Shown one piece after another: positions 1,594-25,256 of a stretch of 64,000 bases of DNA. The notes under the pieces were generated by a model. The model was not told the DNA's origin. It was given only the letters and a program-made list of their open reading frames with translations, and searched no databases. The translations under genes were made by a program, and so were the position numbers. This DNA is from Candidatus Harrisonbacteria bacterium CG10_big_fil_rev_8_21_14_0_10_40_38 (GTDB taxonomy: Bacteria > Patescibacteriota > Minisyncoccia > UBA6257 > 1-14-0-10-40-38), in NCBI GenBank assembly GCA_002773535.1, contig PFAZ01000001.1:241579-305578 (forward strand). The letters run 5' to 3'. The stretch's first letter is position 1. Each line of letters opens with the position of its first letter.

Positions 1594-1731
1594 TTAAAAT
1601 AAAGTCTCTGAACGGATTGTGAAGCCGTTTTGGCATGGTTCCCGATCCCATTTGTGGGGAGGGACAAAACGGCTGAACCCTCGGAGTCTCGCGCTGGCGA
1701 GACGAGAATGAGTAAAGAGACTTTATTTTAA
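1594..1731 (+). repeat. Structured intergenic element, copy A
   Basis: 16-bp closing IR ttaaaataaagtctct/agagactttattttaa; inner stem agccgttttg/caaaacggct with GCATGGT bulge and tccc/ggga stem; gtctcgc/gcgagac hairpin. Confidence 0.75.
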
Positions 1732-1831
1732 ACAAATCATTAACCACAAAAAATCAAAAACCGCAGCCCTAAAGATTGCTTCCTATAATTCCCCAACCCC
1801 AACGAAGGTTTCTGATTTTAAAAAAGTATCA

Positions 1832-1974
1832 GAATATTATTCTTTATATTTTGGAAGCTATCGGAGGCAAAATTCAACATTGGTATCTCTAAAATTACAT
1901 TTTGCCGAGATGCAGGAGTCACTCACTGCTCAAAGTGAGTGAACTCCGATTTCAAAATGTAAAGAATAATATTC
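1832..1974 (+). repeat. Structured intergenic element, copy B
   Basis: Core 1857-1949 matches 17459-17551 at 92/93 nt; enclosed by a ~24-bp IR gaatattattctttatattttg/caaaatgtaaagaataatattc. Confidence 0.9.
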
Positions 1975-2048
1975 AAAAACACATCCGTAAAAATCAAAAA
2001 CCGCAGCCTCCCTCACGAAGGCGCGGTTCTTGATAGAAAGGGAAAATT

Positions 2049-2363
2049 TTACATTCCCATATCGTCTGACGAACCAGATTCTGATGGCATCGGACGTGAT
2101 CCGCGAGTAGAACCTTCCGGCTCTTCAATCTTCAAATTCACTCTCGCATCGTTCTTTATTCCAACGATTCGCAAAAGAGAACGGATTGCTTTCGCAGTAG
2201 CGCCCTGCCTACCAACAACCTGACCCATGTCTTGAGGATTTACGTGAAGCGATAGGAGAACTCCCATCTCATCAACACGCCTCTCAATCTTAACGTCTTC
2301 CGGATGGTCAACGATAGATTTTACGAGGAACTCAAGAAATTCCTGATCAGCCACATTATTCAT
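2049..2363 (-). CDS. khpA: KH-domain RNA-binding protein KhpA
   Basis: LVKSIVDHPEDV, DMGQVVGRQGATAKAIR (GxxG); rpsP-khpA-trmD synteny. Confidence 0.9.
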   Translation of the reverse strand: MNNVADQEFLEFLVKSIVDHPEDVKIERRVDEMGVLLSLHVNPQDMGQVVGRQGATAKAIRSLLRIVGIKNDARVNLKIEEPEGSTRGSRPMPSESGSSDDMGM

Positions 2364-2491
2364 ATCAATTCAATTCTGTAAAACAAGGTAAAACGACCTT
2401 TCGAAACAACCCTTACGCCTTAGCGATCAGATTGCAGTAATTAGTCTAACAAATAAATCCAACACGTCAAGTTGACGTGGGGATTAAAAAA

Positions 2492-2890
2492 TTATTGAGA
2501 CTCAGAAGAAGTCTCTTCTGGTTTTGGCTCTGGTTCCGGAGAACTAACTTCAGAACTTACTTTAGCAGTTTCCTGCACAGAAGCAGCTTCCTTAGGCGCT
2601 TCTTCCTCAGCTTTTTTAACCACTATTTTATGAACCGGAATTTTTGGAGAATTTAAAACTCCTGCCCTTACAAGTAGATTATGAACTGTATCAGTAGGTT
2701 TTGCCCCATTACCCATCCAATAATTAACCCTCTCGCCTTCAATTTTTAGGTTATCTTTCTCCTGCATAGGGTTGTACCAGCCAAGATCCTCAACATAACG
2801 CCCCTTAAGTTTTGAGCGTTTTTCCGTAACAACCACCCTATAACTGGGCTGGTGCTTTTTTCCTATTCTTTTAAGCTTTATCGCTAACAT
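2492..2890 (-). CDS. rpsP: 30S ribosomal protein S16 with acidic tail
   Basis: LKRIGKKHQPSYRVVV, EDLGWYNP, GAKPTDTV. Confidence 0.97.
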   Translation of the reverse strand: MLAIKLKRIGKKHQPSYRVVVTEKRSKLKGRYVEDLGWYNPMQEKDNLKIEGERVNYWMGNGAKPTDTVHNLLVRAGVLNSPKIPVHKIVVKKAEEEAPKEAASVQETAKVSSEVSSPEPEPKPEETSSESQ

Positions 2891-2947
2891 GCCAAGATAT
2901 TACTAAATAAACCGACACCCGTCAATGATTAAACAAATTCTGATAAA

Positions 2948-5104
2948 TTACCCCAGTTTCAGCGATAAAACCTTAGAAGCACCATCCTCGCCCATAGTAA
3001 CGCCATACAAAACATCAGCCGCCTCCATAGTCGTCCTATTATGAGTTACTACAACAAATTGAGTATATTTTGAAAACTCCGAAATAAGCTCTGAGAACCT
3101 TCTGCTATTTGCCTCATCGAGCGCTGCATCCGCCTCATCAAGAACCAAAAACGGTGGTGGAGACACTGAAATAAGCGCAAAAAGCACAGCCATAGAAACC
3201 AAACTCTTTTCCCCACCAGATAACATATCAAGACTATGAATCCTCTTCGAAGGAATAGAGATTTCAACATCGATTCCTCCCAGATCAAGAACTTCTTCAG
3301 CCTCAACCACATTTTCAGGGACCTCCTCTTCGTTTTGAGAAACACTCCTCACAGGAGGACGCGTTACAGAGAGTTTTGCTTTTCCACCTCCAAACATCAT
3401 CCTAAAATACTTTGAGACCCCCTCATTTATCTCATTAAGCGCCTTTGTAAAACCGTCGTGTATCTTTCTATCGAGTTCTTTGAGTAAATTTTTTAAATCA
3501 CCACAAGCTTTTTCAAGATCAGCAAGTTGTTCGGAAAGGAATTGATACCTCTCTTCGGTTTCCTTTGCTTCATCTATTAAAGCCGGATCAATTGCGCCTA
3601 TACTCGCAAGCTCGCCCCTTAATCTTAAAATTTTTCGCTCAATCTCATTTAAAGAAACACTCCCAGTCAAACTTACCGGAGAAAAATCATCAAGCTTTCT
3701 ATCCATCTGAACTGCCTGATGAGCCAGCTCCTCCCGCTTTATAGATAGTCTCTCTCTATCAAATTTTAATGTGTCGCGCGACCTCTCTAAAAGTGACACC
3801 TCTTCACGGACTCTCTGTGCCGCCGAAAAAGCTTCCCGAAAAACATCTGTAAAATCAGTAAGCGCAGAATTATGTTCCGCCTCTTCTTTTTCTAAAATAC
3901 TATATCCGTCTGAAAGTTCTTTAAGTTCAATGAATATTTTCTTTTTTGTCTCTAGAAGACTTTGATCAAGTTGTGGTTTTTCGCCTTTTACCTCAGAGTC
4001 AAAAACAACATCTATTTTTTCTGAAAGACTCTTAAGAAGATTTTTAATCACACGAGAATCACTCTCAAGTAAAATATCTTCCAAAGTTTCTCTAACCTCC
4101 TCCAAAACACGAATAAGCTCGTGAGTATCATAGGGAGAATCCTTTTTTTCCGAATGTATTTCAATTTGAGCATCAATCCTCGCAAGCTCCCTCTCAAGAT
4201 CAATCCTTTTTGAAGATAATTTCTGTTTTTTCTGCTGAATTTCCTGTGAATGTTTTTGCTGTTTTATTTTATCCTCACCGATTTTTTCAATTTTTTTAAG
4301 CTCTGATTCAGCGTGCGAAAGTTTTTCACCTGTTTTTTTTATTTTTTCCTCAATTTCATTTATTTTTGGAGCTATACGCTTATCTTCCTCTTCAAGGTCA
4401 TAAAGCTTTACACCAAAATATTGCTTTTCAAGATCTGTAAGTTCCGCTACTACCTCTGACTGTTTTTCCCATTTAGAAGCCTGTTTCCTAAGAAGTTTTA
4501 AATGTGGCGTAATCTCATCGACAAGACTTTTAACCTTATCCATGTTCGAGAGTGTTGATTTGAGCTTTAATTCGGCATCATGTTTTTTTAACTGATATTG
4601 CCTAAGCCCTAAAATCTCCTCAAGCATAAAACGCCTCTCCTTTGGTGTTGATCGCACAAAAAGATCGGCATCTCCCTGATTTATTATCGTAAAACCCTTT
4701 GTTCCAAGACGAGATTGCGCAAAAAAATCAATTACGTCCTTAAGACGCACCTCAGAGTCATTGATAAAATATTTTGACGAACCATCTCTATCAATTCGCC
4801 TCCTGATTTCAACTTCGTGGAAATCAACAGGGAAAAACCTGCTCGTATTATCAAAAACAATGGTTGCTTGAGCAAATCCAACTCTTGGCCTTTCCGGAGT
4901 ACCAGCAAAAATAAGATCTTCGGCCTTCAGACTTCTCATGCTTTTTGCCTCCCTCTCGCCCAAAAGCCACCTTATTGCATCAATGATATTCGATTTTCCG
5001 CTTCCATTCGGACCAACAACGCCGGTAACTCCACCGGGAAAATTCAAAATAACCTTAGAAGCAAAGGATTTAAAACCAACAAGCTCTAAACGTTTAAGGT
5101 GCAT
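2948..5104 (-). CDS. smc: SMC-family ATPase, short and apparently hinge-less
   Basis: GFKSF, Walker A GPNGSGKSN, LSGGEK signature, LDEADAALD Walker B/D-loop, coiled coils; downstream of rnc. Confidence 0.9.
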   Translation of the reverse strand: MHLKRLELVGFKSFASKVILNFPGGVTGVVGPNGSGKSNIIDAIRWLLGEREAKSMRSLKAEDLIFAGTPERPRVGFAQATIVFDNTSRFFPVDFHEVEIRRRIDRDGSSKYFINDSEVRLKDVIDFFAQSRLGTKGFTIINQGDADLFVRSTPKERRFMLEEILGLRQYQLKKHDAELKLKSTLSNMDKVKSLVDEITPHLKLLRKQASKWEKQSEVVAELTDLEKQYFGVKLYDLEEEDKRIAPKINEIEEKIKKTGEKLSHAESELKKIEKIGEDKIKQQKHSQEIQQKKQKLSSKRIDLERELARIDAQIEIHSEKKDSPYDTHELIRVLEEVRETLEDILLESDSRVIKNLLKSLSEKIDVVFDSEVKGEKPQLDQSLLETKKKIFIELKELSDGYSILEKEEAEHNSALTDFTDVFREAFSAAQRVREEVSLLERSRDTLKFDRERLSIKREELAHQAVQMDRKLDDFSPVSLTGSVSLNEIERKILRLRGELASIGAIDPALIDEAKETEERYQFLSEQLADLEKACGDLKNLLKELDRKIHDGFTKALNEINEGVSKYFRMMFGGGKAKLSVTRPPVRSVSQNEEEVPENVVEAEEVLDLGGIDVEISIPSKRIHSLDMLSGGEKSLVSMAVLFALISVSPPPFLVLDEADAALDEANSRRFSELISEFSKYTQFVVVTHNRTTMEAADVLYGVTMGEDGASKVLSLKLG

Positions 5105-5120
5105 TATTGTTTCAATTTAA

Positions 5121-5825
5121 CTATTCTACATTTCCTGACTGCATACTATCGAGTGCTAATTTTGCCGCTTCAACCTCTGCTTCTTGCTTGGAATAACCAA
5201 CACCCTCAGCAATAAGTTTATCACCAAAGAAAACTCCTATGGTAAAAGTTTTCTGATGGTCCAAGCCGCTTTCGGCAAGAACCTTATAAGTAGGCGTTAG
5301 TTTAAATTTCTCCTGAACAATTTCCTGCAAAAGACTCTTTGTGTCTTTATACAAACCTTTCTTCATTACCTCATCCAATTTTGAAAGAATAAACTTCAAA
5401 ATAAAAGACTTAGCAGTCTGATACCCACCATCAAGATATATTGCGCCAATCAAAGATTCCAAGGTATTTGCCAATATAACTTCACGCGCTCTTCCTATGT
5501 CTTTCGACTCTCCTTTTGAAAGAAACAGGAATTGCTCCAGTGATATTTCTCTAGATATCGACGCCATCATCTGATAATTCACAAGCGCAGACCTTATTGG
5601 CGTAAGCTGACCCTCGGTATAATCAGGAAACCTAAAAAACAGCTCCTCCGTAACGATAAGCTCCACAACCGCATCACCTAAAAACTCGAGCCGCTCGTTA
5701 TGCGAAACAGGCCACTTCGGATCTTCGTTTAAATAAGACCTGTGAGTTAGTGATTCTTTTATAAGATTAGGATCCTTAAATGTGTAAGAAATAATCCGCT
5801 CTAGCTCAGAAATATTTTTTTGCAT
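5121..5825 (-). CDS. rnc: Ribonuclease III
   Basis: HNERLEFLGDAV signature plus C-terminal dsRBD. Confidence 0.98.
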   Translation of the reverse strand: MQKNISELERIISYTFKDPNLIKESLTHRSYLNEDPKWPVSHNERLEFLGDAVVELIVTEELFFRFPDYTEGQLTPIRSALVNYQMMASISREISLEQFLFLSKGESKDIGRAREVILANTLESLIGAIYLDGGYQTAKSFILKFILSKLDEVMKKGLYKDTKSLLQEIVQEKFKLTPTYKVLAESGLDHQKTFTIGVFFGDKLIAEGVGYSKQEAEVEAAKLALDSMQSGNVE

Positions 5826-5907
5826 ATTAGAGTGAGCGACATGTGATATGAGACATGACTCAAAGCATATCCCCTGTCACATATAGCCCGTAAATACAGA
5901 TAAAAAT

Positions 5908-6378
5908 CTATTTATTTTTTTCAACTTTTTCTGGCGAAACCAAGTCACTTTTATTCTCGGTTTTCTCCATTTCTTTGTATACCGTTCCTAAAACCCCATT
6001 AATAAACCTTCCAGAATTTATTCCCCCATAATTCTTTGCAAGTTCTATTGCTTCATTTATAGCAACTTTCGAAGGAACTTCATTCTTGTCAGCATATAAA
6101 AGCTCAAAAAGACCCAATCTAAGAACATTTCTATCAATTATCGAAATCTGATCAAGCGGCCACTCTGGAGCGGTTTTTACTATAATCGAATCAATTGAAT
6201 CAATGTGTTCTATTACACCTTTTGCTAATTTCCATGCAAAGTCCGGTTCATCTACCCCGAGCGCAAATTCATTTAAATTTCTCTCGAGTACAGCAGCAAG
6301 ATCTACTTTCTTGTGCTGAAAATCCCATTCGTATAGGGACTGAAGGACGACCGAACGGATAAGTTGACGTGTAGCCAT
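5908..6378 (-). CDS. nusB: Transcription antitermination factor NusB
   Basis: [25 protein letters not shown]. Confidence 0.97.
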
Positions 6379-6463
6379 ATATTTTTTAGGAACGTACTTC
6401 GGCTGACTTTACTCCGCCTCTCTTCAAACTATAACCACAGATCAAAGGCTAATCAAGTGAAAA

Positions 6464-6886
6464 TCAGGAAGTCTGCTCCGTTTTATCTTCCTCCGGCTTT
6501 GCAGTTTCTGGGTTTTCCTGCTCTACAGTCTGCATATCCTCTGTTTTTTTCTCGTCATCCGAATTCTGGGAATCCATTTCCATCTCTGCCTCCACAGACT
6601 CTTTGGTAGCATCTACAGACTCTCCAGAAACCCCCGAGGCCTCTTCAACAACCGGCGCCTGAACAGCCTCAGCTGCCCCAACATCAGTCTTTTCCATCGC
6701 TTCTGGCTTATAATGTTTAGTTCTCTCGGGTTTAGTATAAACCCCACACTGTATACAGGCCTTATGAGGCAAAACAGGCCCTTTGCACTGCAAGCAAACC
6801 AAAATCTTAGCCGGTTTTAAGGCTAAGTGTGCTCGGCGTCTGCCAACCTTCGATTTAGAATGATGTTTTACTGGAACTCCTCCCAT
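6464..6886 (-). CDS. rpmF: 50S ribosomal protein L32 with long acidic extension
   Basis: MGGVPVKHHSKSKVGRRR with CxxC...HxxCxxCG; start set at ATG 6886. Confidence 0.92.
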   Translation of the reverse strand: MGGVPVKHHSKSKVGRRRAHLALKPAKILVCLQCKGPVLPHKACIQCGVYTKPERTKHYKPEAMEKTDVGAAEAVQAPVVEEASGVSGESVDATKESVEAEMEMDSQNSDDEKKTEDMQTVEQENPETAKPEEDKTEQTS

Positions 6887-7023
6887 AAAAAAAGTAACGT
6901 AACAATAATCGAAATGCGCCAGTGTGTCAAATAATCCATAAAAACCAACAAAAAAATAGAAACTAAAAATAAATATCGGCAAGGCTTTTTTCCACACCCA
7001 CTAACCGACTATAATTAGTTGTC

Positions 7024-10000
7024 ATGCCACGATTTACACACCTTCACACCCACTCACATTATTCACTTCTCGATGGACTTTCAAAAATCGAAGATCTTGT
7101 AAATCATGCAAAAGAACTTGGAATGGATTCTCTGGCTATCACCGACCATGGAAATCTTTACGGTGCAGTAGAATTTTATAAAAAAGCTAAAGCCGCGGGC
7201 ATAAAACCAATCCTCGGAGTTGAAGCCTACATCGCGCCGGGAGATCACACAGAAAAGAGTTCAAATGGAGAAAGAAAATATTATCATCTAACACTTCTGG
7301 TAGAAAACGAAACAGGTTGGAAGAATTTAATAAAACTCGTCTCCGAAGCACACCTAAACGGCTTTTACTACAAGCCGAGAATGGACAAAAAGATGCTCGC
7401 AGAAAATCATGAAGGCATAATCGCCCTTTCGGGTTGTCCTGCAGGAGAAGTTTCAAACCGACTAATGGAAGGAAAATATGATTTAGCAAAAGAAGCGGCA
7501 AAAGAATACGAAGAGATATTCGGCAAAGGAAATTTTTTTATCGAAATTGACCATCATCCAAAAATAAAAGAAATTGCGCCTTTAAGAGAAGGACGCGTTC
7601 GACTTTCAAAAGAAACTGGCATACCACTTGTCGCCACACAAGACATCCACTACACAAAAAAAGAAGATGCAGAATACCACGACATCCTCCTCGCAGTTCA
7701 AACGGGTGACAAATTAAGTGACCCCGACCGACTCTCCCTCAAAGCTGATGATTTTTCAATGCGCTCACCGGAAGAAATGGCAAGTTATTTTGAAGATGTT
7801 CCAGAGGCAATCGAAAATACCGCAAAAATTGCGGACAGATGCAATATCGAAATAGAGCTCGGCAAAACAAAACTCCCAAAATTTGAAGTACCGGATGGAA
7901 CTGATTCGATAATCTATCTCGAAAAACTACTTAACGAAAAAATTTCTGAAAGATACCCGGAAATCACACAAGAAATCAAAGACCGTCTAGAAAGAGAACT
8001 TTCCGTCATTAAACGCACGGGTTTTGCCGATTACTTCCTTATTGTTCAAGACTTTGTTAACTGGGCAAAAGAAAGAGGCATTGTCGTAGGTCCAGGAAGA
8101 GGTTCTGCTGCTGGAAGCATAATTTCATACATTTTAAAAATTACCGACCTTGACCCAATCAAATACGAACTTCTTTTTGAAAGATTCTTAAACCCCGAAC
8201 GTATTCAAATGCCTGATATAGACATCGACATAACTGATGTCAGACGCGACGAAGTTTTAGGTTACCTAAAAGAAACATATGGCGAAGACCACGTTGCAAA
8301 CATCATAACTTTTGGAACAATGGCTGCCCGCGCTGCCATAAGAGACGTAGGCCGCGCTCTCGGTATTAGTTACTCATTCTGCGATCAGATTGCAAAGCTC
8401 ATCCCTTTCAACCTAAAACTTGCGAAATCTCTCGAAACCGTAGTTGAGCTTTCCGAAATGTATAAAAAAGATGAACAAGCAAAAAAACTCATTGATTCAG
8501 CAATGCACCTCGAAGGGGTAGCGCGTCATGCTTCAGTACACGCCTGCGGCATCGTTATAACTGAAAAGCCCATAACAGAATACCTCCCACTTCAACGCTC
8601 ACCGCAAGACCAAAATGTCATAGTTACTCAGTTTGAAATGCATGCCGTAGAAGACCTGGGTCTCCTAAAAATGGATCTTCTTGGGCTTCGAAACTTAACA
8701 ATCATTGAAAATACCATTCGTCTCGTCGAAGAACTTCACGGAGAAAAAATAAATATCAGCAAAATCACACTTGAAGATCCGGAAGTTTTTAAACTTCTCC
8801 AAGCGGGAGAAACCATGGGCGTATTTCAGCTTGAGTCTGCCGGCATGCGCAGATATTTAAAAGAATTAAAGCCAACAAGCATTGAAGACATCATTGCCAT
8901 GGTCTCCTTATATAGACCGGGCCCGATGGAGCTTATTCCTGAATACATTGCCAGAAAGCACGGCCGAAAGCCCGTCACCTATCTCCATCCAAAACTTAAA
9001 GCAATCCTAGAAAACACATATGGCATCGGAGTTTATCAGGAGCAAATGATGCGCATAGCACGTGACCTTGCCGGCTATAGCCTAGCTGAAGCTGATACCC
9101 TCCGAAAAGCCATTGGTAAAAAAATAAAAAAACTCCTCGATGAGCAGGAAGAAAAACTGATCGCAGGCATGATTAAAAACGGCGTCGATGAGAAAACCGC
9201 AAAAGCAGTCTGGGAACTTTTTCCCTCATTCGCCCGCTACGGATTCAATAGGTCCCATGGAGCCTGCTACGCAATGATCGCCTATGAAACCGCATATCTA
9301 AAAGCTCATTACCCGATTGAGTTCATGACCGCGCTCCTAAATGCAGAGTCAGGAGACATAGAAAGAACCGCTATCCTCGTAACTGAAGCCAAAAGAGTAA
9401 ATATCGAAATCCTTCCACCAAACATAAATAAAAGCGGAGCCACATTTATGCCCGAAAAAGAAAATGGAAAAGACGGCATACGTTTTGGACTCTCGGCAAT
9501 AAAAAACGTCGGCGCAAATATTGTTGCCGCCATAATCGAAAACAGATCCGCAGAAGGTCCGTTCGAAAACCTAAGCGCACTACTCTCACGTGTCCAGCAC
9601 AAAGACCTAAATAAAAAATCCCTCGAAAGTCTTATCAAATGCGGCGCGCTTGATACTTTAGGCACAGAACGTAATCAGGCGCTCCAAAATATTGAAGAAC
9701 TTCTTAAATTTGCCAACCTTTATAAAAAAGAACAGAAAACCTCTCAAAACAGCCTTTTTGAATCCCTTTCATTCTCACCGCAATCACTTAAGTTAAAAGA
9801 TGTTCCACCAGCCAGCTCATCTGAACGTCTTGCGTGGGAAAAAGAGCTCCTGGGGCTTTACGTTACAGACCACCCTTTAAACCAACACAAAGAACGCATA
9901 GAACAAGTTAAAGCGTCTCCGATTAAATACCTTCTAGCAAACGGAAGCGATCGTGAGTATGCTCGCGTCGTTGGCATAGTCTCAAGACTTCAAAAAATCG

Positions 10001-10197
10001 TAACCAAAACAGGTAAGCCCATGCTCTTCGCTCAAATCGAAGATTTTGTCAGTCCTTTAGAAATCATAGTTTTTCCTGAAACACTCACAAAGACAGAAGC
10101 CGTTTGGAAGGAAAACAGCGCCGTGCTAGTCTTAGGGAAAATGTCCAGACGAAACGGAGAAGCAAAGTTTATTTGCGAAGACGCGCGAACCCTCTAA
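7024..10197 (+). CDS. dnaE: DNA polymerase III alpha subunit
   Basis: PHP HLHTHSHYSLLDG, GPGRGSAAGS, MPDIDID, YGFNRSH. Confidence 0.98.
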   Translation: MPRFTHLHTHSHYSLLDGLSKIEDLVNHAKELGMDSLAITDHGNLYGAVEFYKKAKAAGIKPILGVEAYIAPGDHTEKSSNGERKYYHLTLLVENETGWKNLIKLVSEAHLNGFYYKPRMDKKMLAENHEGIIALSGCPAGEVSNRLMEGKYDLAKEAAKEYEEIFGKGNFFIEIDHHPKIKEIAPLREGRVRLSKETGIPLVATQDIHYTKKEDAEYHDILLAVQTGDKLSDPDRLSLKADDFSMRSPEEMASYFEDVPEAIENTAKIADRCNIEIELGKTKLPKFEVPDGTDSIIYLEKLLNEKISERYPEITQEIKDRLERELSVIKRTGFADYFLIVQDFVNWAKERGIVVGPGRGSAAGSIISYILKITDLDPIKYELLFERFLNPERIQMPDIDIDITDVRRDEVLGYLKETYGEDHVANIITFGTMAARAAIRDVGRALGISYSFCDQIAKLIPFNLKLAKSLETVVELSEMYKKDEQAKKLIDSAMHLEGVARHASVHACGIVITEKPITEYLPLQRSPQDQNVIVTQFEMHAVEDLGLLKMDLLGLRNLTIIENTIRLVEELHGEKINISKITLEDPEVFKLLQAGETMGVFQLESAGMRRYLKELKPTSIEDIIAMVSLYRPGPMELIPEYIARKHGRKPVTYLHPKLKAILENTYGIGVYQEQMMRIARDLAGYSLAEADTLRKAIGKKIKKLLDEQEEKLIAGMIKNGVDEKTAKAVWELFPSFARYGFNRSHGACYAMIAYETAYLKAHYPIEFMTALLNAESGDIERTAILVTEAKRVNIEILPPNINKSGATFMPEKENGKDGIRFGLSAIKNVGANIVAAIIENRSAEGPFENLSALLSRVQHKDLNKKSLESLIKCGALDTLGTERNQALQNIEELLKFANLYKKEQKTSQNSLFESLSFSPQSLKLKDVPPASSSERLAWEKELLGLYVTDHPLNQHKERIEQVKASPIKYLLANGSDREYARVVGIVSRLQKIVTKTGKPMLFAQIEDFVSPLEIIVFPETLTKTEAVWKENSAVLVLGKMSRRNGEAKFICEDARTL

Positions 10198-10241
10198 ACC
10201 CGCTCTGGAAAAACCAGAAAACCCCTGATATTCTCAAAATC

Positions 10242-12056
10242 ATGAAAACTGAAGACAAAAAACTAGACGAAATCAGACATTCTCTTGCTCACCTACTGGC
10301 AGCGGCTGTACTTGATGAATTTCCAGACACGCTACTAGGCATTGGTCCAACAATCGATAACGGCTTCTACTACGACTTAAAGTTTAAAAAGCCTATCTCT
10401 CCAGAAATATTAAAATCCCTAGAAGAAAAAATCAGGCGCTATATAAAAGCGTCCCTTCCGTTTTCTGGAGAAAAAATAACTTCCACAAAAGCAAAAAAAC
10501 TTTTTAAAGATCAACCATTTAAACTCGAACTCATAAACGAATTTTCAAAAGAAGGTAAAGATCTAACCATTTATCACACATGGAGTAAAGAAAAAAATAT
10601 TCACCTTGGTAAACATGTCACATGCAACATGTCACATTCCGCATGCTTCATAGACCTCTGCCGCGGCGGCCACGTCAAAAACACAAGCGAAATAAATCCT
10701 GACGGCTTTAAGCTAAGCCATCTCGCAGGAGCATATTGGAGAGGCGACGAAAAAAATCCTCAACTTACAAGAATTTATGGATTGGCTTTCAAAACAAAAA
10801 AAGAACTCGATGAATACATAGAAATGTTTGAGGAGGCAAAACGCCGAGATCACAAAAAACTTGGTTATGAACTCGATTTATTTACGTTTTCAAACCTCGT
10901 TGGCGCAGGATTTCCCCTCTTTACCCCAAGAGGCACCATAGTAAGAGACCTACTAGATTCATTTGTTTGGGAATTAAGAAGGGAAGCAGGTTACGAAAGA
11001 GTAGATATACCTCATATTACAAAAAAAGAACTGTATGAAACTTCCGGTCATTGGGAAAAATTTCAGGACGAACTTTTTAAAATCAAAACCCGTGAAGGTC
11101 ATTTCTTTGCAATGAAACCAATGAACTGTCCGCACCACGCCCAGATTTATGCGCGCAAACAACAAAGCTACAGAGACCTCCCTCAAAGATATGCCTCAAC
11201 CACAAAAGTCTACAGAGATGAACAGACTGGAGAACTATCAGGCCTTGCAAGGGTGAGATCCATCACACAAGACGATGCCCACGTTTTCTGCAGATTAAAT
11301 CAGGTAGAAGAAGAAATTGGAAAAATCTGGCACATTATAGACACATTTTATGGCTCATTTGGATTTGAGCTAAACGTACGCCTCTCACTCCGTGACGAAA
11401 AGCAAAAAGAAAAATATCTTGGAAGCGATGAAAGCTGGAAAAAAGCAGAAAAAGCGCTAAAGAAAATAATGGAGGACAAAAAAGCTTTTGATAAAGACCG
11501 CGTAGATATAGGCGGAGCTGCATTTTATGGACCAAAAATAGACTTTACCGCAAAAGACTCCATCGGCAGAGAATGGCAGATTGCGACAATTCAACTCGAT
11601 GTAAATCAGCCTGAAAGATTTGATCTTTCCTGCATAAATGAAAAAGGTGGAAAAGAGCGCATTGTCATGATCCACGCCGCCATCATGGGTTCCATTGAAC
11701 GCTTTATGGCAACTCTTATCGAACACACCGCAGGACTTTTCCCTCTCTGGCTTGCGCCAACCCAGATTCGCATTCTTCCCATAAGCGACAAATTCACAAA
11801 ATATGCGGAAAGTATAAAAGAAGAATTACAGAGCCACAACCTGCGAGTAGACCTCCCTTCGGCAGACGAAACATTAGGTAAAAGAATCAGGCAATCCGAA
11901 ATCGAAAAAATCCCCTACATAATTGTCGTGGGTGAAAAAGAACAAAAAGAAAAAAATATAAGCATTAGATCCCTAGTCTCAAAAGAACAAAATACCGAAA
12001 CTCTAAAAGACTTTATCGAAAAAACCGAAAAACTCATAAAAGAAAAAAAATCATAA
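10242..12056 (+). CDS. thrS: Threonine--tRNA ligase
   Basis: RHSLAHLLA, DLCRGGH, KPMNCPHH, HAAIMGSIERF; start set at ATG 10242. Confidence 0.97.
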   Translation: MKTEDKKLDEIRHSLAHLLAAAVLDEFPDTLLGIGPTIDNGFYYDLKFKKPISPEILKSLEEKIRRYIKASLPFSGEKITSTKAKKLFKDQPFKLELINEFSKEGKDLTIYHTWSKEKNIHLGKHVTCNMSHSACFIDLCRGGHVKNTSEINPDGFKLSHLAGAYWRGDEKNPQLTRIYGLAFKTKKELDEYIEMFEEAKRRDHKKLGYELDLFTFSNLVGAGFPLFTPRGTIVRDLLDSFVWELRREAGYERVDIPHITKKELYETSGHWEKFQDELFKIKTREGHFFAMKPMNCPHHAQIYARKQQSYRDLPQRYASTTKVYRDEQTGELSGLARVRSITQDDAHVFCRLNQVEEEIGKIWHIIDTFYGSFGFELNVRLSLRDEKQKEKYLGSDESWKKAEKALKKIMEDKKAFDKDRVDIGGAAFYGPKIDFTAKDSIGREWQIATIQLDVNQPERFDLSCINEKGGKERIVMIHAAIMGSIERFMATLIEHTAGLFPLWLAPTQIRILPISDKFTKYAESIKEELQSHNLRVDLPSADETLGKRIRQSEIEKIPYIIVVGEKEQKEKNISIRSLVSKEQNTETLKDFIEKTEKLIKEKKS

Positions 12057-15846: not shown

Positions 15847-16956
15847 CTAAAAAGATTTAAATTGTTTTGAAAGTCTTGGTGCATTAAATAACGAAGCATA
15901 ATTTGAATCTGGTAATATGTCGTAAGAAAGACTCGGTACTTCTGCCATTCTTTCAAATCTAATTTTCGCAACAGGTTGGTTTTTGCGAAAAGTAAGTGGT
16001 TCAAAAGGCCTTACCTCAAGAACAAGCCTCCTACCAACACCATCTCCACCATTTCCATACCCCCAACCAGGATCAATATACCCAGCATAATGAGAACGAA
16101 ACTCACCCGATCTGGCATCCATAGGAATCATTTCGCAAGCAAGATGAGATGGCACACGGACACATTCATCCGTCTGGAGTATATAAAATCTCCCCTGACG
16201 CAATTTAATAATCCCATCACGAGCCGCAATCGGACGAAAAAACTCTTCAGGTTCATACGCACCAATTTTAGAAAGATCCAAGATCTTATCTCCCTCAAGA
16301 CTCTCCCATCCAGAAATTTCAGAAGAAATCGCCAAAGTCAGTATTATAGAACCATCGCCATCCTTAACTGAAAAATTTTTATATTCAAATGGTTTTTGAG
16401 AGTCAAATTCCCAAAGAAGTTTATCCTTGTCAAAACTTTCAGTAAGATCATTTTCATTAAAACCCGTATCACTATTAAAAAATCTTATTTGCGAAAGAGA
16501 CATTCCATTCTCCATTTTAATAGCAAAAGAATTCGGCTGGATCACAAGCCAAAGTTCACCCGAGAAACCAGCGGGAGCAACAGTATCAAATCTCGACACA
16601 CCATCGGCGATAACACGAACCTGAATATCGTTTCTGCCTACACTCGATTTTGGATTACAATATGCAAAAACATCAGCCGGAAGTTTTAAAGACTCAGAAA
16701 GTTTCACAATATACGTCACTCCCCGCTCTAAAGGGGAAGAAATATTGTGAGGCAAAGCAGAAACAAGAGGAAGAAGATCCCGAACTTTCTCCCCGGATCG
16801 CGGCTGAAAAATTCCATCAATCCTATAAATCTCATCACTAATAGCAAGATCAAGTGAAGCAGGACGAATCCGTTTGGTATCTGATCCTTCAATCGAAGAA
16901 GAGTCCATGAGAGCACGAATCATTTGAGATGAAAAAGCACCAAAGCGATTAGGCAT
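15847..16956 (-). CDS. dcd: dCTP deaminase, long two-domain type
   Basis: RPASLDL, NPKSSVGR, GEFRSHYAGYIDPGWG, LVLEVR; start set at ATG 16956. Confidence 0.88.
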   Translation of the reverse strand: MPNRFGAFSSQMIRALMDSSSIEGSDTKRIRPASLDLAISDEIYRIDGIFQPRSGEKVRDLLPLVSALPHNISSPLERGVTYIVKLSESLKLPADVFAYCNPKSSVGRNDIQVRVIADGVSRFDTVAPAGFSGELWLVIQPNSFAIKMENGMSLSQIRFFNSDTGFNENDLTESFDKDKLLWEFDSQKPFEYKNFSVKDGDGSIILTLAISSEISGWESLEGDKILDLSKIGAYEPEEFFRPIAARDGIIKLRQGRFYILQTDECVRVPSHLACEMIPMDARSGEFRSHYAGYIDPGWGYGNGGDGVGRRLVLEVRPFEPLTFRKNQPVAKIRFERMAEVPSLSYDILPDSNYASLFNAPRLSKQFKSF

Positions 16957-17090
16957 ATGCCATATATTAGCACTCAAATAATCGCAATAAAAGCACAACA
17001 AAAATTTGACAAAATACACATTTATCAATAATCATATACTCGACACCTAAAGAACTCACACAAACTCTTTCATAGAAAAGGTCGGATAAG

Positions 17091-17324
17091 GTGGCTGAAA
17101 AGGCACGAGAAGAACTGGAAAAAATGTTTGATAATGTCGGCCTATTTTCCGAAGGTTTGGCAGTGGTTGAAAAGGATGGGAAAGAATTTCATATCCGACA
17201 TGATGGCTCTCCTGCATACGAGGAAAGGTTTGACAGCGCTAACTCCTTCTCTGAGGGAGTAGCATCTGTCAAAAAAGATGGCAAGTGGTTTAACATCCGC
17301 TACGACGGCACAAGAGTCGACTGA
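17091..17324 (+). CDS. Small WG-repeat protein
   Basis: Two FSEG(L/V)AxVxKDGKxFxIRxDG repeats. Confidence 0.8.
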   Translation: MAEKAREELEKMFDNVGLFSEGLAVVEKDGKEFHIRHDGSPAYEERFDSANSFSEGVASVKKDGKWFNIRYDGTRVD

Positions 17325-17435
17325 CTCTATTTCTCTTCTCCAAACAACAAGCCGCCCCATCTCACATGAGGCGGCCTTCTTTTTTTCTAACCCCACAAAA
17401 GGCACAGCAAAAAATATCAATTACTAAAACAAAAA

Positions 17436-17574
17436 CTTCCCCGTATTACTCTATAGAGGCTATCGGAGGCAAAATGCAACATTGGTATCTCTAAAATTAC
17501 ATTTTGCCGAGATGCAGGAGTCACTCACTGCTCAAAGTGAGTGAACTCCGACTCTAGAGAGTAATATGGGGAAG
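17436..17574 (+). repeat. Structured intergenic element, copy C
   Basis: Same 93-nt core as copy B but an unrelated 23-bp closing IR cttccccgtattactctatagag/ctctagagagtaatatggggaag. Confidence 0.9.
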
Positions 17575-17586
17575 AAAAACTCTTCA

Positions 17587-18012
17587 CTATTCTGTAATTT
17601 CTATTCCCATATTTTTTGCTGTGCCTGCAACAATCTTCATTGCTTGCTCAACATTTTCCGTATTCAAATCAGGTAGTTTAATTTCGGCTATAGCCTTGAG
17701 GTCAGCTTTCGTGACCTTGCCAACTTTCTTTTTATTCGCTTCCGATGAACCTTTTTCAACTGAAGCATATTTCTTAAGCAAAGCCGATGCCGGAGGAGTC
17801 TTTAAAATAAATGAAAAGCTCCTATCGTCATAAATAGTTATTTCAGCAGGAACAACGTCACCTGTCATGTCTTTTGTGGCGTCATTAAACTGCTTACAAA
17901 AATCCCCAATATTTATTCCATGAGGACCAAGAGCTGTTCCAACAGGAGGCGCGTGGTTTGCCTTTCCCGCCTCAAGCTGTAGCTTTAATACTGTTTTTAT
18001 TGGCTTTGACAT
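17587..18012 (-). CDS. rplK: 50S ribosomal protein L11
   Basis: [31 protein letters not shown]. Confidence 0.98.
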
Positions 18013-18096
18013 AATTTATGTCACTAGATAGTAACGAAATAATTAAAAATTTGCAAGTCCAAAACTAATGGCTTATCCCTAGCAACTAGAACCTCG

Positions 18097-18678
18097 TTAT
18101 ATCTTCTGCACCTGCAACGAATCAAGTTCTATCAAAGTATCTCTTCCGAATATCGGCACCAAAACTTTGACCTTGCCCTTTTCGCCATCAACTTCAGCAA
18201 CCTTGGCATCATAGTCTTTAAACGATCCGTCAGTGATCTTCACAAGATCCCCTACTTTTATATCAACATTAAACTTCGTATCCTTCTCTTCCATCCTCAC
18301 CATGATTGCATCAACTTCCTCTTTTGAAAGAGGCACTGGAGTTGTAGCATCAGGACCGACAAACCCAGTAACTCGTGGGGTGTTTCGAACAACATACCAC
18401 GAGTCATCAGCGAGTATCATATCAACGAGAACATACCCATGATAAATTTTCTCCTCTGTAACTCGCCTTTTACCGTTTTTGATTTTTACTTTTTTCTCTT
18501 TTGGGACAATAACATTAAAAATCTTGTCATTCATGGCAAGAGAGTCAACACGCTGTTTGAGGTATCTCGCAACAGCGTCCTCATATCCAGAATACGTATG
18601 GATTGCATACCAGTGCCTATTTGACTTCTGATCTTCTTCCTTTAGGTTTTTATCTCCTTTTAAAAGACGGTTTTCCAT
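18097..18678 (-). CDS. nusG: Transcription elongation factor NusG
   Basis: WYAIHTYSGYE, VRNTPRVTGFVG, KOW domain, IFGR. Confidence 0.97.
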   Translation of the reverse strand: MENRLLKGDKNLKEEDQKSNRHWYAIHTYSGYEDAVARYLKQRVDSLAMNDKIFNVIVPKEKKVKIKNGKRRVTEEKIYHGYVLVDMILADDSWYVVRNTPRVTGFVGPDATTPVPLSKEEVDAIMVRMEEKDTKFNVDIKVGDLVKITDGSFKDYDAKVAEVDGEKGKVKVLVPIFGRDTLIELDSLQVQKI

Positions 18679-18682
18679 AAAA

Positions 18683-18871
18683 TTAACCGATAATAAATAT
18701 TTCTAATACTCTGGTAAATCCAAAATCAAGAACACCAAGAAAAGCAGCGAGTCCCAAAGAGAACCCGATAACAATAAATGTTAGCTTTCTGGTCTCAATA
18801 AATGTAGGCCAGTTGATCCTCTTAAACTCCCTGCGGGATTCCTGAAGATAATTTGTAAGACGTTCAAACAT
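18683..18871 (-). CDS. secE: Preprotein translocase SecE
   Basis: EFKRINWPT plus one TM helix, upstream of nusG; start set at ATG 18871. Confidence 0.92.
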   Translation of the reverse strand: MFERLTNYLQESRREFKRINWPTFIETRKLTFIVIGFSLGLAAFLGVLDFGFTRVLEIFIIG

Positions 18872-18896
18872 ATTCGTAAAATAACAATTATAGTGG

Positions 18897-20945
18897 CTAT
18901 ATGTCAAGATTTTTTACCGACAGAGCATGTGCCTGAATAAACTTCTTTCTTGGCTCAACAGTCTCTCCCATAAGCACGCTAAACAATCTATCCGCCTCTG
19001 TAGCATCCCCAACCTCCACAAGCTTCAAAACCCTAGCCTCGGGATCCATTGTAGTTTCCCAAAGCTGCTGTGGGTTCATCTCTCCCAAACCTTTATACCT
19101 CTGAACAAAGATTCCTTTCATTCTACCATCACCAGTTTCCAAAGAAACCTCTTCGGTATTTTCTGCATCCGTCACTTCAACCTCTTCCCCCTTGGCTTTC
19201 TTCTTTGCTGAAGCCGCCTGCCTCTCTTTCTTTAATGCCTGAAGTTCATCAATAGCTTTATCTTTAGCTCCTTCATTAAATACATATCTAAAAGACTTTC
19301 CTGCCTGAACCTTAAAGAGTGGCGGCTGCGCGATATACAAATGACCGGCATCAATTATCTCACGGAAGTACCTGTAAAACAGGGTAAGCAAAAGAGTCCT
19401 GATATGAGCGCCATCAACATCAGCATCAGTCATGATGATGATTTTATGATATCTAAGTTTTGAAATATCAAACGACTCAGCGATAGCGGTGCCGATCGCG
19501 ACAACCAACGCCTTTATCTCTTTATTGATAAGCATCTTATCAATCCTCGATTTTTCAACATTCAAAATTTTTCCCTTTAAAGGCAATATTGCCTGTGTCC
19601 TCCTATCACGACCGGATTTTGCGCTACCACCAGCAGAGTCTCCCTCTACTATAAACAGCTCAGAATCTTCCGGACTTCGTGAAGTGCAGTCTGCAAGTTT
19701 ACCGGGAAGAGTAAGTCCTTCGAGAACCCCTTTTCGAAGAACCATGTCCTTCGCCGCTTTTGCAGCTTTTCTCGCCTTTACGGCAAGAAGAGATTTTTCG
19801 ATGATCCTTCTTGCATCAGAAGAATTTCTTTCAAGAAAATCTTTCAGAGACTCACCCACAACTGACTCAACTGCAGTGCGCGCTTCGGTGTTCCCAAGAC
19901 GCGCCTTTGTCTGACCTTCAAACTGTGGTTCGCGAAGCTTAACCGAAACAATAACCGTAAGACCCTCACGAACATCATCACCTGTAAAACCATCATCTTC
20001 TTTTTTAAGAAGATTATTTGAACGAGCATATTCATTTAAAGTTCTGGTAAGAGCCGACCTAAAACCAGTCATATGCATTCCGCCATCGGGAGTATAAATA
20101 TTATTTGCAAAACTTAACTCTTTAGATTCATATTCGTCGTTATAAACAAAAGCCACCTCAACCCCCATATCGTTCTGCTGTTTATCTACATAAAAAAGAT
20201 TATCTAAAAGCGATTTTTCTGAACGACTAAGATATCTAAGAAAAGACGCGAGCCCGCCATCAAAACAAAATCCATGATAAACCGGCACCTCTCCTCGCGA
20301 GTCTATTATCTCGATTGCAATTCCTTTTGTAAGGAACGCCTGTCGCCTCAAGTGGTCAACAATTCTTTTTAAATCAAATTTGGTTTCAGAAAAAATAGTA
20401 TGATCCGGCTGGAAGATTATCTTCGTTCCGGTACTTTTACTAGATCCTATTTTTTTAACCTTGGTTTTTGGAACACCACGTTCATATTCCTGCTCATAGA
20501 CTCCACCATCACGAGAAACCTCAGCACGAAGCCATACAGACAATGCACATACAACCGAAACACCAACACCGTGGAGACCTCCTGAAACCTTATAAGACTC
20601 GCCTCCAAATTTACCTCCGGCATGAAGCGTTGTAAGAACAGTCTCCAGTGCAGACTTTTTTGTCTGTGCATGAACCTCAACCGGAATACCGCGTCCATCA
20701 TCAGTTACAGCAACTTTATTGTCAGGTAAAAGCTCCACCCGAATATGCTTCGCGTGTCCTGCCATTGCCTCGTCAATCGAATTATCAACGACCTCCCAGA
20801 TAAGATGGTGAAGACCGTCTACACCCGTCGAGCCAATATACATACCCGGTCTCTTTCGAACCGGCTCTAAACCCTCAAGAACGTATATGTCCTTGGCTGA
20901 ATATGATGGCTTTTTTTCTGCCTTTTTCTCGTCTTTTTCCGCCAT
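18897..20945 (-). CDS. gyrB: DNA gyrase subunit B (type IIA topoisomerase B subunit)
   Basis: VRKRPGMYIG, SGGLHGVG, VEGDSAGG, MTDADVDG, QRYKGLGEM. Confidence 0.95.
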   Translation of the reverse strand: MAEKDEKKAEKKPSYSAKDIYVLEGLEPVRKRPGMYIGSTGVDGLHHLIWEVVDNSIDEAMAGHAKHIRVELLPDNKVAVTDDGRGIPVEVHAQTKKSALETVLTTLHAGGKFGGESYKVSGGLHGVGVSVVCALSVWLRAEVSRDGGVYEQEYERGVPKTKVKKIGSSKSTGTKIIFQPDHTIFSETKFDLKRIVDHLRRQAFLTKGIAIEIIDSRGEVPVYHGFCFDGGLASFLRYLSRSEKSLLDNLFYVDKQQNDMGVEVAFVYNDEYESKELSFANNIYTPDGGMHMTGFRSALTRTLNEYARSNNLLKKEDDGFTGDDVREGLTVIVSVKLREPQFEGQTKARLGNTEARTAVESVVGESLKDFLERNSSDARRIIEKSLLAVKARKAAKAAKDMVLRKGVLEGLTLPGKLADCTSRSPEDSELFIVEGDSAGGSAKSGRDRRTQAILPLKGKILNVEKSRIDKMLINKEIKALVVAIGTAIAESFDISKLRYHKIIIMTDADVDGAHIRTLLLTLFYRYFREIIDAGHLYIAQPPLFKVQAGKSFRYVFNEGAKDKAIDELQALKKERQAASAKKKAKGEEVEVTDAENTEEVSLETGDGRMKGIFVQRYKGLGEMNPQQLWETTMDPEARVLKLVEVGDATEADRLFSVLMGETVEPRKKFIQAHALSVKNLDI

Positions 20946-22363: not shown

Positions 22364-22407
22364 TTTACCTAACAGTTTTTGACGATCGTCAAAAACTATT
22401 AGGTAAA
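22364..22407. repeat. 44-bp loopless palindrome
   Basis: tttacctaacagtttttgacga/tcgtcaaaaactattaggtaaa, one mismatch. Confidence 0.8.
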
Positions 22408-23818: not shown

Positions 23819-23846
23819 GAAATCTCGGGGGGAGATTTCTTTTAAG

Positions 23847-24281
23847 TTAGTCTTTCTTCCTCGCAGCAATAAATACCGCCACAGAAACAATTAAAATATT
23901 TTTCAATATATACTGCCCCTCAAGCGTTGGCACGAAAGGTGCATTCCATGCAATACTCGGCAAAAGTATAAGCGGAAGCACTGTTGTAAAAATGTGAATT
24001 GCAAGAAACAAAAACGCCAATTTTTCAAAACCTTTTATTAAAAACAAAATGCCTATCGCCATTTCAAAAACAGCAAACAAAGAATAAAAAATTGGGAATG
24101 GCATCATAAATCCAAGCGTCTTTTCAAAAAGCGCCAAAACAAGCGGCCCGGCAGGACTAAGACCTATTAGTTTTAAAAACCCGAACCAAAAATAAACCAA
24201 AAAAATAGCGAACCTCCCAAGCCGCACATCAATGCGTTGGGACAAACTCACCAACCCACCAGAAAAACTTTTCAAACTCAT
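23847..24281 (-). CDS. DoxX-like membrane protein
   Basis: YFWFGFLK and PTLEGQYILKN, four TM segments. Confidence 0.75.
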   Translation of the reverse strand: MSLKSFSGGLVSLSQRIDVRLGRFAIFLVYFWFGFLKLIGLSPAGPLVLALFEKTLGFMMPFPIFYSLFAVFEMAIGILFLIKGFEKLAFLFLAIHIFTTVLPLILLPSIAWNAPFVPTLEGQYILKNILIVSVAVFIAARKKD

Positions 24282-24367
24282 AAACTAATTATAACAAAAA
24301 TTAATTACCAAAAATAAAAGGGCTGTGCAAGATTTCTCTCACACAGCCCCGTTGTTTCAAAAAATCC

Positions 24368-24685
24368 TTACTTGAAGTCTGAATCCTTTGGAACTTTGTT
24401 TACAGTGCGACCACAACAGTCGCACAGCGCAAAAAGAGAACATAAATCAAAATTCTCTCTACGCCCACATTTTTTATAACTCCTCATCTGCCTCTTCTTC
24501 ATCCTCTTCATCGGCTTACTGCAACAACGAGTAAACCAACATGTCTTTCTTCCAAAGACTCCAGGATCGGGTACCCATAGAACTGCTTCCGAAAATCATT
24601 CTGGCGCATGATTCAGGCATCTTCCATGAGAACACTGGACATACTAATGTTCTGAACTCTCGTGCGCAACATTGCTATGGTCCAT
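24368..24685 (-). pseudogene. Cys-rich 105-codon frame with internal TAG and TGA
   Basis: aaaggag SD plus ATG 24685; same frame to TAA 24368 with stops at 24644-46 and 24596-98; upstream TTGACT promoter and downstream terminator. Confidence 0.4.
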
Positions 24686-24837
24686 AGCAATACTCCTTTC
24701 TGGCCACCGGTTTTCTAAGGTGCCACCCATACAATAACAAAAAATACAAATAAGTCAATATACCGTATGACCAGGTCTTTTAAAAACAGTCTTTCAATAA
24801 TATTTTTAAACTTTGATTTTTCAATTTTGAATTTTAC

Positions 24838-24914
24838 TGGTGCCGGAGGCGAGAATCGAACTCGCGACCTTGGGTTTATGAGTCCCACGCTCTAACCAAC
24901 TGAGCTACCCCGGC
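24838..24914 (-). tRNA. tRNA with CAT anticodon (elongator Met or Ile2)
   Basis: GCCGGGG/CTCCGGC acceptor, GTTCGA T-arm, CTCATAA loop, encoded CCA; A31-A39 mismatch. Confidence 0.92.
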
Positions 24915-25119
24915 AGGAAAAAATTGTTAAATAATGATACTCCGAAGAGCAAGTAAATATGCACGCGAAGTCAGTATACTAAAACACGCCAAAAAACAAA
25001 ACACCATCTCAATATTTCTAATATAAACAATACGTTTTCAAAAAAATACAAACTTTCTTATATGAACTAGGTTATCTATTCAAAGAAGGTCTCTGAGATC
25101 TTGTTTTCAATGTGAATGA

Positions 25120-25256
25120 GGGTGTTTCTTTTAAAAAGCTTTCGGAAGCGCATGAAGCTTGGTTCCCACCCGCAGGGGTGGGATTCATGCGCTGAGAACG
25201 CAGGCGGTTACTTGCCGCAGGAGCAAGTAAACCGCCGTTTTTTAAAAGAAATATCC
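25120..25256 (+). repeat. Structured intergenic element, copy D (diverged)
   Basis: 18-bp closing IR; gct-tcgga, stem agcgcatgaa/ttcatgcgct with GCTTGGT bulge, GAGA..GCAGG linker, A-bulged 3' hairpin. Confidence 0.8.

Follow-up and report, generated by a model that had tools for sequence, protein, structure and literature searches.

Structured 140-190-nt intergenic repeats of a Harrisonbacteria genome share a covarying three-way junction and show signs of mobility

A 64,000-nt stretch of the genome of Candidatus Harrisonbacteria bacterium CG10_big_fil_rev_8_21_14_0_10_40_38 (contig PFAZ01000001.1, positions 241,579 to 305,578; hereafter the window, by which the whole stretch at its full length is meant) harbors three clear members (copies B, C and D) and one degenerate relative (copy A) of a multi-copy family of 140-190-nt intergenic elements that share a three-way-junction fold supported by covariation. 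With middling confidence, we consider this family to be a non-autonomous, mobile and mosaic DNA repeat, which would act as folded single-stranded DNA (ssDNA) during replication and not as a dedicated RNA gene. The repeat is real, structured, widespread and previously undescribed: a literature search found no description of it (the supplements of Weinberg 2017, PMC5737381, and those of the genomic-language-model preprints lay outside this search and could hold one). When Rfam 15 was run over the window, three tRNAs alone reached gathering scores and the element copies matched no family; in E-value mode (E up to 10), applied to A/B and D, the best overlap was Vg1_ribozyme (19.7 bits versus a gathering score of 90, E 3.6). 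An earlier note on this DNA, which had proposed a structured multi-copy element without a named family, was thereby borne out.

The fold was derived from models built stepwise (R1 from B and C, R2 from four copies, and R3 from 108 sequences with 45 pairs, 45 of the sequences being pattern-chosen); MAFFT alignments of the copies were unusable. The statistics of the 45 pairs refer to 80 model-found copies (79 distinct), none of them pattern-chosen, in an alignment fitted to the model and thus favouring the structure. On the 79 distinct copies the 45 pairs are 91.9% paired, as against 34.5-48.1% when the 3' partners are slid by 1-3 columns, changes on both sides are seen in 44 of the 45, and covariation scores 0.782 versus 0.183 in shuffles, 0 of 500 of which reach the observed value. 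An independent analysis of mutual information also arrived at P1a, the P2 extension and P2b, and no further long-range covariation was found among the unpaired columns. The elements are enclosed by an outer stem (P1, about 20 bp, variable and often closed by a tandem G-A/G-A mismatch), inside which P1a (2+3 bp around a conserved bulged T) leads through an invariant GGA/GA internal loop into the P2 arm (8+2 bp), in which the 6-nt bulge GCUUGG is invariant and the P2b hairpin variable; one A separates this arm from P3 (helices of 5 and 8 bp on either side of a bulged A, with the loop GCNGGA), from which GG leads back into P1. Five nucleotides (C20, A23, G119, A120 and G121) are identical in 80 of 80 copies. 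In 17 of 78 copies P1 is first interrupted by the tandem GA/GA, with two more pairs following in 16 of these 17. Between P1a and P2, the GGA/GA loop has the tandem G-A of a kink-turn (a three-nt bulge followed by tandem sheared G-A pairs) but a bulge of one nt.

The claim that P2 varies in sequence while its pairing is kept held on the larger sample (98.7% paired on the 79 distinct members, 8 of 8 pairs changed on both sides). The H-type pseudoknot that had been drawn between the TGGT segment and the bases 3' of P2 did not survive: its two registers are 61.6% and 69.1% paired, which equals the shuffled means, the observed values are reached by 248 and 330 of 500 shuffles, and 5 and 2 cells have changed on both sides. 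Its 3' partner, GAGAy, belongs instead to P1a, in which it is 91.3% paired with the 5'-junction segment xUC (covariation 0.455 versus 0.103, reached by 0 of 500 shuffles); in this helix, position x of xUC and position y of GAy covary (CG 56, AU 11, UA 4, GC 2, other 2).

The copies of the window and their parts are the following (positions are those of the window, + is the strand as written, and the minimum free energies (MFE) are in kcal/mol):

1832..1974, + strand: copy B, whole hairpin (R3 80.0 bits, E 3.3e-19; MFE -61.8 kcal/mol, z -11.75)
1832-1856 with 1950-1974, + strand: P1 arms of B
1857..1949, + strand: core of B, 93 nt, one base off the core of C (T/G at 1874); the flanking P1 arms are unrelated
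1857-1862, + strand: 5' strand of P1a of B (GCTATC), with the internal loop GGA at 1863-1865
1866-1873 with 1899-1906, + strand: P2 of B, with the CATTGGT motif at 1878-1884
1907-1913, + strand: GAGATGC of B (GA loop and 3' strand of P1a)
1915-1927 with 1934-1947, + strand: P3 of B (bulged A), with the loop GCTCAA at 1928-1933
17436..17574, + strand: copy C, whole hairpin (R3 83.7 bits, E 3.3e-20; MFE -72.9, z -11.77)
17436-17458 with 17552-17574, + strand: P1 arms of C, around the core at 17459-17551
17468-17476 with 17500-17508, + strand: P2 of C
17517-17529 with 17536-17549, + strand: P3 of C
25120..25256, + strand: copy D, the most typical member (R3 117.1 bits, E 3.7e-29; MFE -76.6, z -9.82)
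25118-25119 and 25257-25258, + strand: tandem GA/GA mismatch closing P1 of D
25120-25137 with 25238-25256, + strand: P1 arms of D
25138-25143 with 25194-25201, + strand: P1a of D (GCTTTC with GAGAACGC), with the GGA loop at 25144-25146
25147-25156 with 25184-25193, + strand: P2 of D, with the bulge GCTTGG at 25157-25162 and the P2b hairpin at 25164-25183
25203-25215 with 25223-25236, + strand: P3 of D, with the loop CGCAGGA at 25216-25222
1594..1731, + strand: copy A, degenerate or rearranged relative (R3 27.4 bits, E 4.1e-5, found without filters only)
1595-1609 with 1716-1730, + strand: P1 arms of A
1623-1632 with 1665-1674, + strand: P2 of A, with the bulge GCATGG at 1633-1638 and P2b at 1639-1664
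1680-1686, + strand: CTCGGAG after P2 of A, followed by a short hairpin (1687-1702) in place of P3

B, C and D stand at the places and with the layout that had been reported for them: each folds far below its shuffles, and R1, for which only B and C were used, recovers D with 51.9 bits (E 4e-12). Of the four-copy family originally proposed, these three are thus clear members (80-117 bits), and A is retained only as a degenerate relative because of its low unfiltered R3 score and because P1a and the base of P3 are unpaired in it under the final model; it gave no match with nhmmer, R2 or filtered R3, and 9 bits (E 6) with R1. The MFE of A is -60.9 kcal/mol. On the + strand the z values of A-D against shuffles range from -7.4 to -11.8, and the - strand of each folds 5-12 kcal/mol less stably. 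The outer stem P1, which spans 15-25 bp in A-D and encloses every copy, was absent from the earlier description. B, C and D lie, as claimed, just 3' of genes (khpA, rplK and a tRNA-Met gene end 75, 13 and 9 nt away, respectively), and all three are on the strand opposite to the adjoining gene; in the case of C the distance is counted from the stop codon of rplK (17587-18012, minus strand), and TTTTTGTTTT comes after the C hairpin when read in the rplK direction. Around A and B we observed further outer pairing (GTTTTTGATTTTT with AAAAATCAAAAAC; 1563-1575 with 1749-1761, and 1807-1819 with 1990-2002), and both copies are located within a tandem duplication of about 240 nt. A canonical khpA terminator hairpin is found at 2001-2026 (minus strand); as the downstream arm is the complement of its U-tract, B lies behind that terminator.

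Outside the window, R1 recovered a fifth copy (E, 49.1 bits) and R2 a sixth (F, just upstream of the window), while R3 brought the source genome (760 kb) to 7 copies at E 6e-7 or better, all of them on the + strand of contig C15 (those beyond the window at C15:240322, 309846, 195065 and 44219). Within the same order, R2 matches were present in 28 of 61 genomes (source genome counted), with up to 16 per genome of about 700 kb, and in an even sample of the phylum 10 of 151 genomes were positive (source genome counted). An exact three-motif pattern, searched in species-representative genomes, hit 90 stretches, of which 80 were listed and 74 loci were checked against the model; among the matches listed, 72 of the 74 checked loci also matched the model, including 11 of 11 from Candidatus Omnitrophota, and many belonged to Saccharibacteria, Liptonbacteria, Jorgensenbacteria, Wolfebacteria, Kerfeldbacteria and Paceibacteria. 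Two Obscuribacter-type pattern matches were dismissed as chance (no model match and no P2 partner). Two Omnitrophota metagenome-assembled genomes (MAGs) carry 11 and 7 copies and one Liptonbacteria MAG carries 15; viral contigs gave 0 exact-pattern matches. This patchy spread (across the order, the phylum sample and Omnitrophota) is counted among the evidence for mobility.

Signs of mobility also come from the way in which the copies are put together. The 93-nt cores of B and C are 1 base apart and sit in P1 arms that share nothing, and in the related genome G002 five copies of one core are found at unrelated places. Furthermore, P2 and P3 modules have been recombined between copies, and the P3 module of copy E is nearly identical to that in genomes of other families. 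G002 contains 23 5' halves versus 14 3' halves; the extra halves break off in the P2b loop and are directly followed by the conserved leader of the next unit (CCAACNAGCGA), so that truncated 5' units form head-to-tail arrays, and in one instance the absent 3' part is found again beyond the inserted unit, from the P3 loop on. Occupancy differs between orthologous sites as well: at one site shared by G010 and G002 the outer stem is kept and the inner stem and core are replaced, and at the 3' site of rplK 3 of the 12 genomes of the taxonomic family carry the element (the source genome, G010 and G002), with a plain terminator found there instead in G004, G011 and G008. Assemblies break at copies, and contigs from four DNA runs end at B and C; in the same four runs, positions 1-20000 of the window yielded no empty-site variant. 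The source genome holds no split or gene-bearing (autonomous) copies. Taken together, the unrelated stems around the B and C cores, the truncated head-to-tail arrays and the differing occupancy uphold the view, already raised as a possibility in the earlier note, that the element behaves like a non-autonomous mobile element.

Other structured insertions were met with at these loci. A 2.4-kb candidate for an autonomous copy in G002 was rejected, being a different short element beside secY. In the same genome (L184, contig C4, about 6990-7180, minus strand) the same leader-stem-trailer shell as in the element (CCAACAGCGA...AAGCC) surrounds a structured core that is unrelated to it and measures about 115 nt, next to the secY operon, and shells and cores appear to be exchangeable modules. 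Directly behind rplK, G002 (L225) and G005 (L223) carry a different insertion, which is structured, rich in GC and about 170 nt long. It is flanked on both sides by a direct repeat of the final ~18 bases of rplK (stop codon included) and looks like another mobile element with target duplication. Several copies of G002 (e.g. L046 and L043, in the P1 5' arm) bear an 18-nt mini-hairpin (CCTGCCCGCCGAACAGG-like) at the boundary of P1 and core; as it recurs elsewhere in the genome, it represents a second small repeat.

Regarding the nature of the folded molecule, the earlier note had named both a non-coding RNA (ncRNA) and an ssDNA motif, and the weight of evidence leans toward the latter. The core helices contain 67 G-U versus 57 A-C among 3269 cells (the 108 sequences of R3, p 0.42; earlier counts were 23 versus 13 and then 52 versus 40): wobble is symmetric between the strands, and the helices are almost purely Watson-Crick. 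The assertion that non-Watson-Crick pairs are mostly G-U on the + strand is therefore true of the window copies and false for the core helices of the family. Neither -10-like sites (24 versus 27 of 78 copies) nor full promoter-like sites (1 versus 4 of 78) are enriched in either orientation.

What the elements do follow, in most of the genomes, is GC skew. In the sets of five relatives and the source genome taken together, 42 of 48 copies place their written strand on the C-rich strand, and the rule holds in 7 of 7 copies of the source genome, 15 of 15 in G002, 11 of 11 in G089 and all 4 of those tested in G027. In G089 the skew changes sign within one contig, and precisely there one copy has the reverse orientation; when the 5-kb flanks alone are considered, 56 of 80 copies conform. 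The orientation of the flanking open reading frames (ORFs) is mixed (23, 17, 17 and 14 of 80 copies in the four classes, with 9 lacking an ORF on one or both sides). On contig C3 of G002 the elements and most long ORFs share the C-rich strand, whereas on its contig C4 the elements oppose most ORFs, which indicates that orientation follows GC skew and not gene direction. The arrangement on C3 (L189-L198), with most long ORFs on the strand of negative GC skew, is itself unusual and helped to separate the two. The dnaA gene is located on another contig, and no skew switch was seen there.

We argue that an ssDNA which is read on one strand by a protein would best reconcile the skew and wobble data with the strand-specific features of the element. 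In such a scheme the invariant unpaired bases and the purine-purine mismatches of the written strand would form the recognition surface for a trans-acting factor, perhaps a recombinase or nuclease not yet known, perhaps a protein of host replication or repair. New units may enter hairpin loops, either the P2b loop of the element itself or those of terminator-like hairpins behind genes, and recombination between the resulting direct repeats could delete the 3' part of the older unit; insertion into loops followed by such deletion would give rise to arrays and chimeras of the kind observed. The helices might be kept Watson-Crick through templated correction at the DNA level or through gene conversion.

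Several observations weigh against the element being a mobile ssDNA. No target-site duplication and no clean pair of empty and filled sites were found at the DNA level, and no known mover follows the element. The Y1 (HUH) transposase (PF01797) is encoded in 20 of 61 genomes, with the element present in 13 of these 20 and in 15 of the 41 without Y1, and it is missing from G002 (16 matches, 99% complete) and G027 (8 matches); among five copy-rich genomes, IS110 occurs in 0 and a reverse transcriptase in 1, and each of the five has only 1-2 Xer-like tyrosine recombinases (PF00589). All three candidate movers (Y1, IS110 and reverse transcriptase) were rejected, and the co-occurring HUH or reverse-transcriptase gene that the earlier note had advised looking for was not obtained, as neither tracks the element. 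Moreover, the inner 12 bp of P1 show 52 G-U versus 16 A-C (though in a model-fitted alignment), and the skew rule fails in G039 (4 of 8) and G034 (1 of 3). It is also uncomfortable that the written strand, which bears the purine mismatches and the purine-rich loops, would be the template of the leading strand if the leading strand is G-rich, since exposed ssDNA is the lagging-strand template; the G-rich-leading rule was not confirmable at dnaA. The purine-rich invariant loops and the tandem GA/GA make sense on the written strand only, and invariant loop nucleotides across two phyla, within fully diverged stems, are also a signature of functional RNAs.

These last points are the ones on which an RNA interpretation draws: the written strand would encode a structured ncRNA, either a protein-binding RNA or a new class of self-cleaving ribozyme in many copies, with the long P1 as a processing stalk (e.g. 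for RNase III). We regard this as possible and hold it only tentatively. It would account for invariant unpaired nucleotides (in the internal loop, bulge and hairpin loop) beside hypervariable and fully compensated stems, for purine-rich loops and tandem G-A mismatches confined to one strand, and for the better folding of the + strand in the window copies; the multi-copy, patchy and cross-phylum occurrence is as reported for hammerhead and twister ribozymes, and a ribozyme would need no protein partner. Such an RNA is at odds with the balanced wobble of the core helices and the absence of promoter enrichment, and with gene context: of 78 copies, 18 have a written strand that is antisense, and 3 one that is sense, to a gene whose stop codon is at most 30 nt away, and from the placement of the written strand on the C-rich strand it follows that it would mostly be transcribed against neighbouring genes and replication. 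No ribozyme or other family of Rfam was matched even at E up to 10, and the truncated arrays and swapped modules are events at the DNA level. Hammerhead, twister-sister and hatchet ribozymes resemble the element in their invariant internal-loop nucleotides, hypervariable stems, many copies and patchy spread; unlike in ribozymes built on multi-helix junctions, the GGA/GA loop of the element is inside one arm and not at the junction.

The gene context invites another reading, in which the elements serve the host as transcript-end modules (in the manner of REP/BIME), the hairpin formed in the gene direction (the complement of the written strand) terminating transcription or protecting the mRNA 3' ends of highly expressed genes, and the family spreading by duplication and gene conversion. 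We find this unlikely. The neighbours are mostly housekeeping genes, many of them highly expressed (rplK, rplL, khpA, fusA/tuf, recA, groES, rpsO, rpsB and tRNAs), which speaks in its favour, as do the stop codons (counted on 78 of the 80 rows, two having been dropped for missing flanks or for being fragments): in 18 of 78 copies the element has one on the opposite strand no more than 30 nt from its 3' side (25 copies if 50 nt are allowed), compared with 3 of 78 for a stop codon of the same sense within 30 nt of the 5' side. Copy C, followed by TTTTTGTTTT in the rplK direction at the very site where three relatives have a plain terminator, also agrees with it. On the other hand, a T-run within 12 nt of the hairpin is found in just 8 of 79 copies on the gene-sense strand and 6 of 79 on the written strand, so that the family as a whole does not look like Rho-independent terminators (C is among the few copies that do); B stands behind a separate canonical khpA terminator, and on contig C3 of G002 the elements share the strand of most genes. 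Furthermore, a terminator needs neither invariant loops nor a three-way junction, and the conserved mismatches are pyrimidine-pyrimidine on the gene-sense strand.

The least probable of the readings that we entertain is that the family typifies a new class of mobile elements, common to Patescibacteria and Omnitrophota, in which single-stranded nucleic acid inserts into hairpin loops without a known transposase and the invariant junction core serves as a catalytic or recruiting device.

By comparison with known systems, the behaviour of the element in genomes appears most like that of REP/BIME/REPIN or other structured interspersed repeats, and its replication polarity like that of IS200/IS605-type elements, with the defining features of each lacking. 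REP elements are 20-40-nt hairpins or simple pairs of hairpins, with a short conserved palindrome (alone or as an inverted pair) and a conserved 5' tetranucleotide, and are reportedly handled as single-stranded hairpins. Like REP/BIME/REPIN, the element is multi-copy, intergenic and located at gene 3' ends, with palindromic hairpins kept by pairing and with mosaic head-to-tail modules; unlike them, it is a 140-190-nt, 45-pair three-way junction with invariant loops and no short conserved palindrome, whose stems differ completely between copies of one genome. The REP/BIME elements and REPINs of Proteobacteria (the subject of PMC3116915 and PMC3479197) are moved by RAYT, a Y1 HUH transposase. 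The present element, in contrast, occurs in Patescibacteria and Omnitrophota, and its copy-rich carriers G002 and G027 have no RAYT/Y1 gene.

Single-strand transposition of IS200/IS605 was reportedly found by Ton-Hoang and colleagues in 2010 to be coupled to replication. The element resembles this group and its gene-less derivatives (PATEs) in the link between orientation and replication direction (the 42 of 48 copies above), in imperfect hairpins with unpaired bases and in the lack of classical target duplications. It differs in that the transposase is absent from many carriers and in that the junction is inside a long closing stem, and also from IS608, as reportedly organised, in that the feature-bearing strand is on the C-rich strand (the opposite polarity, if the leading strand is G-rich). 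PATEs are recognised by a cognate TnpA and by hairpins matching the ends of an autonomous IS; here, several carriers lack Y1 and the source genome has no gene-bearing copy.

The attC sites of integrons are folded ssDNA sites with a conserved AAC...GTT R-box, an IntI integrase and a cassette array. Structure prevails over sequence in both attC and the element, both have extrahelical bases, an unpaired spacer and a variable terminal structure, and in both orientation with respect to replication matters for what would be a folded ssDNA. Unlike attC, the element has no AAC/GTT R-box (the consensus of its inner stem is GAA/TTC) and no integron integrase or cassette array, its carriers having 1-2 Xer-like PF00589 genes, and its copies are dispersed behind housekeeping genes. 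The Rickettsia RPE, enterobacterial ERIC, pneumococcal BOX and Neisseria Correia repeats are reportedly likewise non-coding, hairpin-forming, modular, dispersed and variable between close relatives; as distinct from MITE-like repeats, the element has covarying stems, an internal junction as its invariant part and no family-wide terminal inverted repeats. A classical MITE, as a derivative of a DDE transposon, would have conserved ends throughout the family as well as a target-site duplication; here, conserved ends (CCAACNAGCGA...GAGCC) are confined to G002, G010 and a few other genomes.

The carriers are among the smallest and most streamlined genomes known, yet they retain 7-16 copies of a 140-190-nt element, in which the unpaired bases are nearly constant across two phyla while the stems are wholly rewritten. 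One possibility is that a folded junction of DNA or RNA is read by an undescribed factor, and this would amount to a new system of mobilisation or recombination; the other is that the family is a new class of functional RNA. In practical terms, the copies break metagenome assemblies of the candidate phyla radiation (CPR) and mark replication polarity in several CPR genomes.

Further observations concern candidate partners and the surroundings of the copies. CsrA was considered as a partner (GGA motifs are present in the loops) and rejected, since 3 of 61 genomes encode PF02599. In a single case (L065) a reverse-transcriptase gene is situated upstream of a copy, 43 nt away. The sole Y1 (IS200-type) match of the source genome, outside the window at C15:216555-216917, contains one in-frame TGA. 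At three loci of G002/G010 a family of 180-207-aa proteins with no Pfam match is encoded just 5' of elements (L071:1270-1875, + strand; L041:2287-2826, - strand; L036:2316-2939, - strand), and its homologue in the source genome (C15:181982-182488) has an in-frame TGA and adjoins no copy. Lastly, the first model matched six plain palindromic hairpins of the window (59949-59980, 22373-22398, 15960-15994, 54378-54400, 65-95 and 15795-15826) on both strands and as P1 only, from which it follows that plain long hairpins are common between the genes of the window.

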